Part shown: positions 14,301-26,300 of the stretch, piece by piece
Layout of the letters: each line of letters starts with the position of its first letter
Position numbering within the stretch: position 1 is the first letter of the stretch
Assembly: GCA_951406725.2 (NCBI GenBank)
Contig: OX597823.1
Coordinates: forward strand, 6,572,001 to 6,636,000
Source of the DNA: Octopus vulgaris
Taxonomy: Eukaryota
DNA: 64,000 bases
Reading direction: 5' to 3'
Made by a program: the position numbers and the translations under genes
Notes under the pieces: model-generated
What the model saw: only the letters and a program-made list of their open reading frames with translations
The model's database searches: none
Told to the model about the DNA's origin: nothing

Positions 14301-17300
14301 CCTATCTCTGTTAATGGTTTATATCTTATTATTGTAAGACATTCCTATCATCAATGGCCAACTGCTGACCACTATAGGTTTGGTCGACAGTTTTATACTT
14401 TCTACAGTGGCCCTATATAATGGCTCAATATTTAGGTCCATAACAAAATAGACTGATCTTCCTAAACCTCCTTTTTCTATTAAGACAACCTTCTTGATCT
14501 ATCAATGTTGCATTCATCTCATTTAATTATCACATGTTAACACCTTTTATTTCTTTTCTTTTTTTATATCTGTGCTAAACCTATGAGATAGCACTGTTCC
14601 CTCATCAGTAGACTTCAGTAATCCAGTGGTAACCAAGTTGGTCATAAATGCTCTTGACACAAACTCATGTCATACCACTTGAAGTAGTATCAACACACAC
14701 CTGTTTTCTTTGTTTTAACCTTTAATTTTATCTATGCAACTCACAGTTCACCAGAATTTCATCTGATTCATAAAATATTTTAAGACTCCTTAATGAAACA
14801 GTTTTCATTCCAGATGAGCAATGATAATTTTTACAGAGGTGAAACAGAAAGTGATAACAAGTGTCCTAAAACACTGTATACTTGCACAAAACATCTTTAA
14901 CAACATGCAAATATTTATACACAGATTATTGCAAAAGAAAAATATTTGAAAAGGTACAAAAGAAGTGATATTCAAGAATATATAAACAAGATGGTGATAT
15001 AGATCAAACTTCAAGCACCAAATCTTGCTTTTGCCCAGAAGTTTTGACTTGGCAAATGCTTATTTCCCATCCTCGGTTTCTGCAATGACATCAATGCCTC
15101 TACTCTTATTAGACAATGTGGGATTGTAGCATCGTCCTCAAATTATTTTTTTACTTTTGGCATAGTTTCTCCTACTATTTTGAACGTTACCTGTTTCTGT
15201 TGACCTTTGACATATGTCAGACTGCATCAAGTATTTGCTTTAGACAGCATTCTAGACCGAGTAATTAGTCCAACCAGTCTATCCAGAACTAATTGCATAA
15301 ACATTTGATCTCTTCTTCTTATTTTTATGTCATCCATAAATGCCTTCTTAGGTGATTTCCCTTGAGTAATTTCTTCTGATAAATCTGCTAATCCCCATAA
15401 AAGCATCCCCATAACAAGCAAAAACCAAGTAACGGATATTGTGCAATCTACAGCTATTCTAGTTCCAATGTTGGACGCATAAAAATCTTTTTCTAGTGCT
15501 TTTGCCACATTAAAATGTACTCAGGACCCTTTATAAAGTGGTTGGTGTTAAGAAAGGCATACTACCATAGGAAAGGTGGAATGTTTCAGGGAGATGTGTT
15601 TCTCAAGCAATCGAGGTGGACAGTAATTCTGAATAAGGGCATGGATAGTGACTACCCAGCCAATTCGATAATGAAGACATTATAATCGATTGCATTGTAT
15701 CTTGCACCCAATCTTGAGGAGAGAGAAAGAGAGCAATTGTCTCAGCAGCAGACCAAAGTCTCCTACTGGGATAAACACAACGTTTAGGGGATGTAATGAT
15801 AGATTTACTATCAGTGAAAAAAAGAGAGTGTGTTCACACTTGTAACAATTTTCAACTTAGTCACCTTGTTAAAAAAGACCGACAACAACAACAACAACAA
15901 CAATTAGGAAACTTAATAAATTGTACAACAAACAAGCTCTCTCATTATCTCATTTGGTTTTACCTTTAAACGACAAATTGTTTTCCTTTATTCCAAAGAG
16001 AATATGAAGTCTGTTGTGTTTTCTAATTTAGCCATTTTACCAACAGCGCCAACACTGCTGGACATTTTATTAAATTTCAAATCAGTAATATCAATGGACT
16101 TGTAAATGCATCCATAGTGAGAGAGAGAGAGAGAGAGAGAGAGAGAGATAAATGACAATATGGCAATGAGATAATAGAAAGAGTGAATATTCCTCTTAAG
16201 GGGAGCGAACCGCTTCTCAGTCATTCACACAAATTATGTAGTTCAGGTGGAGGTAAAATTTGTAGAAGTCAATTAGATATAGTTATTTTATACTCACCAA
16301 GTGGCTGAGCCTCTGTCTGGGATGCCTTGTCTTCAACCTTTGGATGCACTGAAATAAACATTTCCAAGTTTTATACTTCATAGTAAAACTTCTTTAACTT
16401 TATGTATAATTCTGTATTTTATTATTGTGAGACATTCATGTAATCAATGGTCAACTGGTGAGTAATATGGCTTTGGTCAGCATTTTTATACTCTCTACCA
16501 TGGGACCGTGTAATAACCCAATATATAGGTCTACAACTAAATAGACTGACCTTCCTCAATCTCCGCTCACTATTAAGACATCCTACATAATCTAACAACA
16601 TTGCACTTCTCTCATTTAATAATCACTTGTTAACACTGCTAATCTCTTTCTTATATTTTATCTAATCTATGACATGATTGTCCTCTCATCTCTAGACTTC
16701 ACTAATCAACATTCTTCTCGTTTTCTACTTAATTCCTTGACAGCCAAATTGGTCCTCAAAAGTCGGACCATGACACATCGTGTCAGGTAGGATAGACATA
16801 ACCCCGCTCTCTTTTTAAAGGTCACTGTTGGCAATCTTTAATTTTAACTGACCACATCACACTTCATCAGAATATCATCTGATTAAGGAAATATTTGAAA
16901 ATATTTCAATGTCATTCATTTTCCTTAATAAACGACTTTTTTTTCCGGTGAGCAATGATTAGTTCTACAACGGTGGAGAGGTAAGCGATAACAGGTATCC
17001 TGAAACACTGTACTTTTGTACAAAACCTCCTTAACTACAAAATAACTGTTCATGTACATATTATTACAAAGGGGTTATACCCAAATTGAGAACTAACAAT
17101 TTATTCGGAAGAATATATAAACAAAATCGAACTGGAAACATGAAATTTTGCATTTTTTTAGTAGTTTTGAATTATCAGTTGTTTTCTGTCCATCTTCAGC
17201 TTTGCCATGGTCTCACTACCCCAGTATGTATCAGTCAACAAGATAACGTACCACCATATTTAACTTTTGGTTTGTCTTTAACTTTTGGCATGAGTTCTCC

Positions 17301-23300: not shown

Positions 23301-26300
23301 ACTCACCAGTTTCCTGAGATGCAACCTCTAATTCCTGACATGTAGCCTCTGTTTGTACACACCTGTCTTCAAACTTTCGAGCCTCTGAAATAAATATTTC
23401 CAAGTTTTACATTTAATAATAAAATATCTGTTTCTTTATTTTATTAAACTATATTGTTATTGCGAGTCATTCAATTCCTGTCGTTACTGGTCAAATGTTG
23501 ACCATTATGGTTTTGGTCAATATTTCTGTGCTTTCTACAGTGGCCCCATGTAATAGCCTAATATGTCCACAATAAAACAGACTAACATTTCTAAATCCCC
23601 CCTCTCTCTCTCTAAAAACACATTAAATATTCTAACAATGTTGCAATTATCTCATTTAATTAACACTTGATGACAGTTTTCTCTTAGCATTGTCTTTCTT
23701 TTCTTATAACTGTGCCAAATCTATGGCATGGCACAGTCCTCTCATCTCTAGAATTCACTAATCAACATTCCTCTCTAATTAAGTAAAACTGAGGCCATTA
23801 AGACATGTTCTTTATGTGCATACCCTCCACCCCGCACACAATCTGTCCCCTAAAAAACATCTCCACAAGCCAAATTCCATACACCCTTCTCCAACATGAT
23901 CCCTAACAAGATATAAAATGTAAGGTGAGGGTACACGATGTCCATACGACAAAATAACTTTACATTTCAGACATACAAATGTAAGAGAGTTAATGAATTA
24001 TAGCTTATTAATTATCATGATAATTGGGTATATATGCAATACAATGGCACTGTGCTTGACGGTGCAATACTAGATATCAATATAGATTGTATATAATCTG
24101 AGTAAAGAACATATAACCTTCATTACTATGAATATGATTGTGTCTCAGCACAGCTAATATTATGGTAGTTCCATGAGCAAACGAAGAAAGATATAACCAA
24201 GTCCACTGCCAAATACTAATGATTAATTCACTTCTTGGTCAAATAACAATGACTATCTTTCATTAAATAATTTGAACGCAACAATCAAGACCAAAGGGTG
24301 AAACACTCAGAAAACTGTGCCTCTTTTAGCATTAATATCATCTAAAATCTAACAAGTGTGAGAAAAAATAATGACTATATGGATGGTAAATGTTGTTCAA
24401 AGTGTATATTATATATAGTTACAAACAGGGATTTGTGTATTCAAGTCATATTCAATTTCTGTTTCTATATTTTGTATAAACACCAATATTTTATTTAAAT
24501 ATAAACAGATGTTCACGGTTCAATATTTAATTTAACATTTAATAAAATTAAAATTAAGTTCATGATGAATATTTTTATACAGAGTTAATATTTAATTATA
24601 ATTTTCTAATTTGCAACTACAAAATGTATTCTAACCAGAGACATTCAGGGTACACAACCCCAGAAAATACAACATATTACGACAGACATCTGGCTACATA
24701 ACAACATCAAGAATAACCTATCAGAAAACTTACGAAAAATCTTAGTAGAAAAACAACCAATTATCTTATTAACTCACGAGTTTACACTTAAAAAATACAT
24801 TATAGTTCCCTCTTCCAGAAGACAATATTAACTCTATTGTGGCATTTAATTTATCCATTTGACCAAACATGTTAACCATGACTTTATGAAATTTCAGTAA
24901 TATTTTTAATACAATTACTTTAGAGCTAACCTTTCAAATGGAAATTAGAAATGGGATTTGTTCTCCACCATTCTAATACGCAAAATAGCTGAGGTGAATG
25001 TAAAATCTATAGAAATTAATTAAGATCTCTAATTTTAAACTCATCAACTGTCTCTGCCACAGTCTGCACTCCCTTCTCATCAAACTTTGGACTCTCTGAA
25101 ATATGTGTTTGCAAGTTTTATATTTATTTATAGCACAATTTCTTCATATTTATTAATAATCTATATTTTATTATTGAGAGACATTCATATCATCATTATG
25201 ATCACCAGCGATCATAATGCTTTTGGTCAATATTTTTATACTTTCAACAGTGGACCCATGTAATAGCCAATATTTAGCTCCAAAACGAACTCTTGTTGAC
25301 ATTTGCAAATTTCCTCTCTCTGTTAAGATATCCTACATAATCTAACAATGCTATAATTATATCACTTAATTATCACCTAATAACAGTTTATCTGTAGGAT
25401 TTGGTTTCCTTGCTTATATCTATGCCAAATCTATTGCATTTTCAAAACCCTGATCTTCACTAACAACCTGTTTGATTCCAGTGTCAACAAATTTAGTCAT
25501 CAAAGATATAACAACAAACACATGTCACAACCACTTCAAGAAGGAGAAACATACACCTAATCTCTTTGTTAAACATTGTTGCTGATAATCTTTAATTTTA
25601 TCTTCACAGTCCAACAGAATGCCATCTTATTCAGGATATATTTGAAGGTTTCATGATCTGGTTGGAACGTGACACTCAAGTCAGAACCAAAACCAAACTT
25701 TGAGCGATGAACAAGAATGTGTCTCTGTTAGCCTTGGTATCACCCAAAGACCAACACAGCAACATGGAGTTGTGTGTTGAAGTCTCAAACACTGGTGACA
25801 CATACTTTTACTCCTTTATAATATTCTACTAATTTTAATACTTTACCAAAGATGACACTGATGTCCTTGTAAGTACTGTTGTATTTACTTATCTTCTAAT
25901 AACTCATAATTAATCATAGAGTTGATGGAGATTTATTGATACTTCAGTTACTCATTAATTATTTGCAGAATCCTCCATTAGCTTTATGTTGCAGACTACA
26001 ACCCTCTTGAAGTGTGACATGTTTCCTACTTGGATAAGGTCAATGTTTAGTGGATGTAGTGTGAAGATATACTATTACAGAGAACAGACACTAGGAACAC
26101 CTTTTATCATAAATCTGCCAGATTATGTCAGACCTCTGTCTACATAACAACATGAAGTATATTATTCTATACAATAAGGGCAATGGGACAAGCAGGACAA
26201 ACAAACAGATCAGCAAAGGAAATTCTTACCAACTCGACCTCTGCTTGTTACAGGTTTCAAACACCTCAGGCATCGTTTAAGTGGAACTTTTGAACATTCT

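Follow-up and report, generated by a model that had tools for sequence, protein, structure and literature searches.

The 64,000-nucleotide stretch of Octopus vulgaris DNA analysed here (contig OX597823.1, positions 6,572,001 to 6,636,000), hereafter referred to as the window, carries on its minus strand a gene for a protein with ankyrin repeats, a RING finger, a linker encoded by short exons and a C-terminal death domain (Table 1). A preliminary description of this DNA had proposed that four symmetric micro-exons each supply the linker with one motif of the type bound by LC8, and that LC8 occupancy sets the dimerisation of the protein, taken to be an E3 ligase. As described, four minus-strand segments of 51, 78, 51 and 51 nt are present, all in phase 1, with lengths that are multiples of three and a TTTCAG acceptor before each; they encode the expected peptides, with the motif glutamine at an identical codon in every one. 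The pattern [DE][KR]x[TVS]QT occurs four times in the 127,996 six-frame residues of the window, each time in one of these exons (A to D); this pattern was derived from the earlier finding itself, and its count shows clustering, not function. The RING exon and the death domain on either side were both confirmed by Pfam and tblastn. The annotated O. vulgaris protein CAI9728638.1 (P0008) is identical to the window gene exon by exon, in the order RING-B-C-D-E, with exon A missing. An open reading frame at 12942-13469 was considered as a possible N-terminal half of the death domain but rejected: exon E can be spliced to the last exon with the frame intact, and it is exon E that P0008 uses.

Table 1. 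Coding exons of the ankyrin-RING-death-domain gene, in the direction of transcription
Feature	Position in the window	Strand	Description
Seven upstream ankyrin exons, MIB type	28570-47542 (approximately 47459-47542, 40849-41006, 39912-39957, 35007-35161, 33997-34033, 30434-30643, 28570-28745)	minus	Placed by tblastn with family proteins, splice sites and Pfam; the two 5'-most (47459-47542, 40849-41006) predicted from paralogs and not in P0008
RING exon	26230-26369	minus	C3HC4_3, IAP/MIB type; phase 1 end; last zinc pair CLRCL
Linker exon A	25045-25095	minus	51 nt; AT donor; likely dead pseudo-exon
Linker exon B	23307-23384	minus	78 nt, phase 1-1; DRCVQTE; in P0008 and P0001; joined to the RING exon in contigs
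Linker exon C	18892-18942	minus	51 nt; DKETQTQ; in P0008; modelled in the LC8 groove
Linker exon D	16298-16348	minus	51 nt; DKASQTE; in P0008
Exon E	14185-14256	minus	72 nt, phase 1-1; death-domain helices 1-2; exon-intron module common to A-D
Last coding exon	11128-11333	minus	Remainder of the death domain and stop codon; PF00531

Ankyrin repeats, zf-C3HC4_3 and Death were found by Pfam in the three family proteins scanned (P0008, P0012 and P0002), and the same proteins gave no match to MIB_HERC2, ZZ or Mib-repeat, the domains of the N-terminal, substrate-binding MZM/REP region, in a search that stopped short of the DNA upstream of the first exon. Among solved structures, the MIB1 ankyrin chain 8v0e matches residues 14-209 as one stretch, the RING matches those of cIAP and XIAP, with the zinc ligands present, and the death domain finds its best match in RIPK1, in an alignment that covers exon E, with the death domains of TRADD and the ankyrins also among the best. 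A Foldseek search with the whole model returned ankyrin matches only. The AlphaFold2 model, built on a 32-sequence alignment, drops below a predicted local distance difference test (pLDDT) score of 50 at residues 265-324 only, which correspond to exons B-D, and begins the first death-domain helix at residue 329, within exon E. The linker that carries the motifs is thus predicted to be disordered, at a length of about 60 residues, and it is flanked by the RING and the death domain, which would be candidate self-association domains for an LC8 client.

Whereas the RING itself is confirmed, the reading of the protein as an E3 ligase is uncertain, since the RING of the window gene ends in CLRCL and lacks the proline and the arginine that contact the E2 in the MIB1 RING3. 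The form CP..CR closes the domain in 11 of 30 distinct family RINGs, and the XIAP RING also lacks the arginine. On these residues the E3 activity of the window copy is doubtful, and a role as scaffold or decoy in death-domain complexes would be as possible as ubiquitin transfer.

Even though all four motif exons are present in the DNA, exon A is likely a dead pseudo-exon. It is followed by ATGAGT, where B, C, D and E are followed by GTGAGT, and the AT donor recurs in all ten A-type copies among the 100 module matches listed. The exon A peptide is missing from both protein models of the gene (P0008 and its Octopus sinensis counterpart P0001, which likewise skips A and includes B) and from every family protein retrieved for comparison. 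The motif of exon A also has a hydrophobic residue at +2 from its glutamine. Contigs from four sequencing runs, presumed to be RNA and none of them recorded as such, were examined over the region of A, B and the RING exon: a joint from RING to B spanning exon A appears in two of the four runs, with 26 letters on its short side, and none of the joints listed for these runs begins or ends at exon A. Depth over the exon A bins is at intron level (0-35, vs 184-29,875 for the exon B bin), a quantity that cannot rank gene parts, so only the joint across A counts as evidence; near-identical paralogs contribute to these contigs, and letters of paralogs occur in the loose ends. Because exon A has an AT donor, is missing from both proteins and is bypassed by a direct RING-B joint, the window gene has three live motif exons, and the valency of 0 to 4 put forward for it becomes at most 3. 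Constitutive skipping of A is supported by the same joints; for the earlier suggestion that other motif exons of the window gene (B, C, D) may be left out of some transcripts, no support was obtained.

The published LC8 consensus is [D/S]-K-x-[T/V/I]-Q-[T/V]-[D/E], and the Bmf peptide EDKATQTL binds LC8 with an affinity of 0.75 uM (both from the accessible part of PMC3078936). Counted from the glutamine (Q0), binders prefer a polar residue at -4, K/R at -3 and a non-hydrophobic residue at +2, and the threonine at +1 is buried in the complexes (PMC6607443, likewise accessible in part). The motifs of exons B and C fit the anchor [T/V/I]-Q-[T/V] and all three of these preferences, in agreement with the LC8-type motif originally assigned to them. 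The motif of exon C resembles the KETQT of the dynein intermediate chain, a published binder, and that of exon D, also within the rules, has serine at -1, for which SQT binders exist in the published list (both in the available text of PMC6607443). Across the family proteins, with redundant isoforms included, the 3,767 linker residues contain 42 occurrences of [KR]x[TVI]Q[TV] and the 23,710 remaining residues none. The octopus genome encodes a possible partner in an intronless LC8 gene, near-identical to solved DYNLL2. When two copies of this LC8 and two of residues 284-322 were modelled with ESMFold2, the complex scored 0.84, vs 0.02 for the best of three controls, with partner pLDDT of 52 or more and a minimum of 96% of contacts common to the runs; residues 291-301, from exon C, are predicted to sit in the LC8 groove. 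The mark used here is passed by 51 of the 78 solved microbial pairs and by 2 of the 108 mismatched ones, in a calibration set free of peptides and disordered chains. Since similar complexes have already been solved and the calibration is unlike this case, passing the mark shows likeness only. Sequence, conservation and model together suggest that the live motifs likely bind LC8 and that the family likely behaves as an LC8 client.

The origin of these exons can be followed within the same gene. Exon E, the first exon of the death domain, is a fifth copy of the exon-plus-intron module, overlooked in the preliminary description: A-D and E have flanking introns in common (repeat families D2-D4 and D7), and over the 300 nt upstream of each copy, identity is 73-78% in every one of the ten pairwise comparisons, vs 54-64% in shuffled controls (74-76% for exon E against A-D, shuffled 56-64%). 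Across the genome, the 51-nt module pattern has 115 matches (control 0) and the 52-80-nt pattern 160 (control 3). A hundred matches of each set were examined and 60 loci were retrieved, which, together with the window, yielded 184 module copies: 138 linker, 41 death-domain and 5 frameshifted. A series of 72-nt copies connects death-domain exons, reading PKLEEKCLQDV and PVLDEKFLQDV, with linker exons reading PKFEDKGVQTD, and alongside the latter there are 51-, 57- and 78-nt derivatives. The changes at -4, -1, +1 and +2 are all toward the LC8 consensus, as given in the accessible parts of PMC3078936 and PMC6607443. A tree built on the introns of 62 copies is largely a star, with one clade of 57-, 72- and 78-nt motif copies supported (100/99) and placed weakly (80/83) beside two death-domain lineages with K-x-L-Q-D. 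These sequence relationships suggest that the linker exons are likely duplicates of death-domain exon 1, in which the K-x-L-Q-D of helix 1 became K-x-V/T-Q-T. The death-domain state would be the older one because the exon aligns with the RIPK1 death domain. Two other arrangements of the module were observed. A 72-nt degenerate death-domain exon (SLNLEENRSHSTSKKVAVKQQQV) has been kept after the motif array and ahead of the genuine death-domain exon at several loci (L007-L016 and L054, contig C29), where it is included in annotated proteins, and at C2:151941818-152620278 the module is found as Ser/Thr/Gln-rich 57- and 66-nt exons together with tandem copies of death-domain exon 1, with the LC8 motif absent.

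Constraint on the motif was assessed on 46 dispersed linker exons with a GT donor, leaving out 12 motif-less and 7 non-GT copies. Position -3 is K/R in 46/46, Q0 is kept in 44/46 and T+1 in 35/46, with omega values of 0.15, 0.14 and 0.50, respectively, vs 0.56 for the flanks; at Q0 there are five synonymous and two replacement changes. Death-domain copies show another profile, with L-1 in 30/31, Q0 in 8/31 only and a variable +1, so that constraint has shifted from L-1 in the death-domain copies to K/R-3 and Q0 in the dispersed linker copies. Neutral simulation along the intron tree of 47 exons gives 9.7 expected vs 2 observed changes at -3, 9.2 vs 3 at -1 and 9.9 vs 2 at Q0 (P<=0.003), whereas the eight positions other than these three and +1, with 6-11 changes (P 0.10-0.75), are compatible with neutrality. 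When the branch lengths are halved, Q0 (P=0.014) and -3 (P=0.035) remain significant, and -1 and +1 are not. The motif is retained in 36 of the 47 exons, vs 5-18% in the neutral simulation. On the expectation that QT would be better conserved than its flanks, the results are mixed: the share of changes at Q-T lies below expectation (P=0.005-0.043), and sequence comparison of the dispersed paralogs shows constraint at K/R-3, -1 and Q0, but not at T+1 alone and not in the tandem class of copies considered below.

The number of motif units varies among paralogs and among annotated isoforms. In an Octopus bimaculoides protein there are five repeat units, four of them with K-x-V-Q-T, and isoform models of 563, 545 and 528 residues, the unit borders having been taken from the protein. 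One O. sinensis locus has models with 4, 3, 2 or 1 units (481, 464, 447 and 430 residues), and a second one 14 models with 0-2 units; in both species the models differ by whole units of 17-18 residues. These isoforms are annotation models, in which reads cross-mapping among near-identical paralogs may inflate the variation. In one run a joint jumps back by 73 bases inside exon B, and three runs have B-type loose ends, a pattern consistent with paralogs that carry B-type exons in tandem and splice them to one another. The earlier idea that exon number could be tuned by splicing or copy change may apply to the family, whereas in the window gene only the constitutive skipping of A is supported. 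Many paralogs have a single motif. Twelve further loci on contig C31, outside the counts given here, bring additional motifs of the D, B and C types, variants with P-3/M+1 and further donors that are dead. Beyond Octopus, three word-seeded searches returned no named relatives, except P0019, an unrelated-looking 45-residue ENA cluster member, ankyrin proteins dominated the output of a profile search, and there was no match in the Atlas, which leaves absence outside Octopus not established.

Several observations concern the genomic setting of the family. The 51-nt exon has been amplified as a 151-166-bp exon-plus-intron minisatellite with up to 8 copies per gene (L001-L018, L042 and L050-L056, on contigs C27 and C29), with frequent Q-to-K replacement, some frameshifted units and a copy number that likely varies between individuals. 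Many dispersed copies are found close to the ends of contigs, at distances of up to a few hundred kb (C4, C6, C7, C8 and C9). In P0024, P0030 and P0042, the motif exons are followed by another, Ser/Gly-rich repeat unit, and the part of the sequence examined showed no death domain. The window also touches a neighbouring paralog (6587-6646 on the minus strand, and L040:1435-3232), of which it holds an ankyrin-exon fragment; the linker exons of this paralog (SPKFKEKGVQTV, SPKFEEKEVQTE) and its death-domain exon are situated some 27 kb ahead of the first letter of the window.

Taken together, we consider it probable that in this ankyrin-RING-linker-death-domain protein the three linker exons likely derived from death-domain exon 1 became LC8 motifs, and that LC8 dimers bridge two chains between the RING and the death domain, with avidity rising with exon number. 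LC8 dimers would engage live motifs on two chains at once and keep their RINGs and death domains parallel, and avidity would increase with each motif exon; such exons would be gained by tandem duplication and lost through donor mutation, motif mutation or skipping. The downstream effect may be exerted on RING or death-domain assembly, and, in a family that lacks the coiled-coil module of MIB1, LC8 may substitute for it. A wider proposal, possible but held more tentatively, is that an exon of a globular domain has been recycled as a linear motif: death-domain exon 1 would have been duplicated many times in the octopus, with helix 1 turned into an LC8 site and the exon count (0 to about 8 per gene, variable per transcript) acting as a valency dial for LC8-zipped dimerisation in a large, fast-evolving, MIB-derived death-domain family.

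A number of results weigh against the binding of LC8 by these motifs, or against selection for it. T+1 accumulates 6 changes vs 9.3 expected (P=0.09; P=0.66 after halving the branch lengths). Among 63 distinct copies of the 166-bp tandem class on contigs C27 and C29, 37 have Q and 26 have K, with an omega of 2.4 at QT, and none of 73 tandem-class copies meets the full LC8 rules. Under a grading that is a hand-made reading of the published rules, free of any scoring matrix, the 58 dispersed GT-donor exons divide into 28 strong, 6 anchor-only and 24 broken ones (the 41 death-domain exons include none that meets the full rules). Including the motif-less GT exons raises omega at Q0 from 0.14 to 0.25 and shrinks the gap between core and flanks to 0.54 vs 0.63; the change counts are small, and the simulation has no gene conversion among paralogs. 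Several paralogs (P0023, P0025, P0026 and P0241) have no motif, many TQT-anchored peptides fail to bind LC8 (PMC6607443, accessible part), and the score of the modelled complex is possibly a memory of solved LC8-KETQT complexes.

These points give some room to the explanation that decaying duplicates of death-domain exon 1 were kept as an in-frame spacer, the LC8-like motif being an accidental relic of the ancestral K-x-L-Q-D helix and unselected for LC8. K-3 and Q0 do pre-exist in two death-domain lineages, and turnover is evident in repeated donor loss (AT, TT, CT), in the frameshifted copies (5/184), in the neutral-like evolution of the tandem class (omega 1.18 overall) and in the motif-less paralogs. 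We nevertheless regard this explanation as unlikely, given that residue changes at Q0, -1 and K/R-3 of the dispersed copies are much rarer than at adjacent positions even though the same codons vary synonymously, that the motif is kept far more often than in neutral simulations, and that it persists in O. bimaculoides while its flanks have diverged. Less likely again would be selection of the motif for some role besides LC8 dimerisation. It might serve as a kinase site (S/T-Q in C and D), dock a different peptide-binding protein, or bind LC8 for localisation or sequestration in the manner of Bim. Q and K/R are indeed better kept than T+1, the residue buried in LC8 complexes; one motif suffices for sequestration, and many paralogs have just one; and the available text of PMC4695108 describes a splice-controlled LC8 site used in this way in BimL/EL vs BimS. 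The anchor seen most often, however, is V-Q-T and does not form an S/T-Q kinase site, constraint falls on -3, -1 and 0 in agreement with what the LC8 pocket prefers (PMC6607443, in its accessible part), and the units recur every 17-26 residues in a disordered linker.

The least probable of the alternatives, and a very improbable one, is that exon A is a live fourth site, its AT donor rescued by A-to-I editing or by non-canonical splicing, which would restore the 0-4 range. RNA is heavily edited in cephalopods, and almost every A-type copy listed still has an intact motif; these copies are near-identical, however, and have thus had little time for motif decay. Rescue by RNA editing was rejected in the absence of any supporting joint in the contigs, where RING passes straight to B in two of the four runs, and exon A is absent from every protein retrieved.

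The introns after C and D (14800-15830 and 16930-18480, minus strand) hold related, decayed reverse-transcriptase-like fragments (repeat families D16 and D18) duplicated with the module. Two further minus-strand fragments, at 21121-22037 and 60126-60602, resemble what we take to be reverse transcriptase of an RTE-type long interspersed nuclear element (LINE), and just downstream of the gene, at 9000-10600, there are broken frames that presumably correspond to a PIF1/Helitron helicase and a transposase. Upstream, at about 48600-58000, a block of about 5 kb is apparently duplicated, with similar open reading frames at 49446/54360, 51169/56187 and 52511/57359.

The origin and multiplication of short linear motifs are hard to trace, and here one genome shows side by side an intact death-domain exon, a motif exon of equal length, a shortened exon, a tandem array and a dead exon. 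If LC8 binding is true, the family would be a natural series on how LC8 valency sets dimerisation, and would point to an undescribed octopus death-domain signalling family. No publication on this family was evident in literature searches covering titles, abstract openings and few subscription papers, and the accessible part of PMC11463336 does not mention it. The gene would represent a real, apparently undescribed variant of the multivalent LC8 arrays, traceable to a death-domain exon.

The closest known systems include the multivalent LC8 clients, such as ASCIZ/ATMIN, 53BP1, KANK1 L2, Panoramix and GKAP, in which, according to the available portions of the literature, a disordered region close to domains that oligomerise likewise contains more than one motif of the TQT type. 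The octopus motifs differ in that each has its own phase-1 exon derived from a death-domain exon, in a number that varies by paralog and annotated isoform, with the comparison drawn at the level of motifs and not of the clients' exon layouts. Bim (BCL2L11) resembles the octopus gene in having a DKSTQT LC8 site that splicing includes or removes in a cell-death regulator (PMC4695108, accessible part), whereas its site is a single on/off one, with no array, RING or death domain. MIB1 and MIB2 share the MIB-type ankyrin array followed by an IAP-type RING, and databases call the octopus family MIB-like. In MIB1, only RING3 is active, RING1 and RING2 being inactive, and the protein dimerises through a coiled coil adjoining RING3, with higher activity in the dimeric state (bioRxiv 10.1101/2024.03.01.582834, available in part); MIB2 is described, in the text available, as acting on RIPK1 in TNF signalling. 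The octopus family, by contrast, has one RING rather than three, and the motif linker and death domain replace the later RINGs and coiled coil of MIB1; the window protein, with a death domain at its C-terminus instead of a coiled coil and catalytic RING3, is not a Mind bomb member. RIPK1, TRADD and the ankyrin death-domain proteins, lastly, provide the best solved matches of its C-terminal domain, exon E included, and themselves lack both the RING and the array of motif exons.

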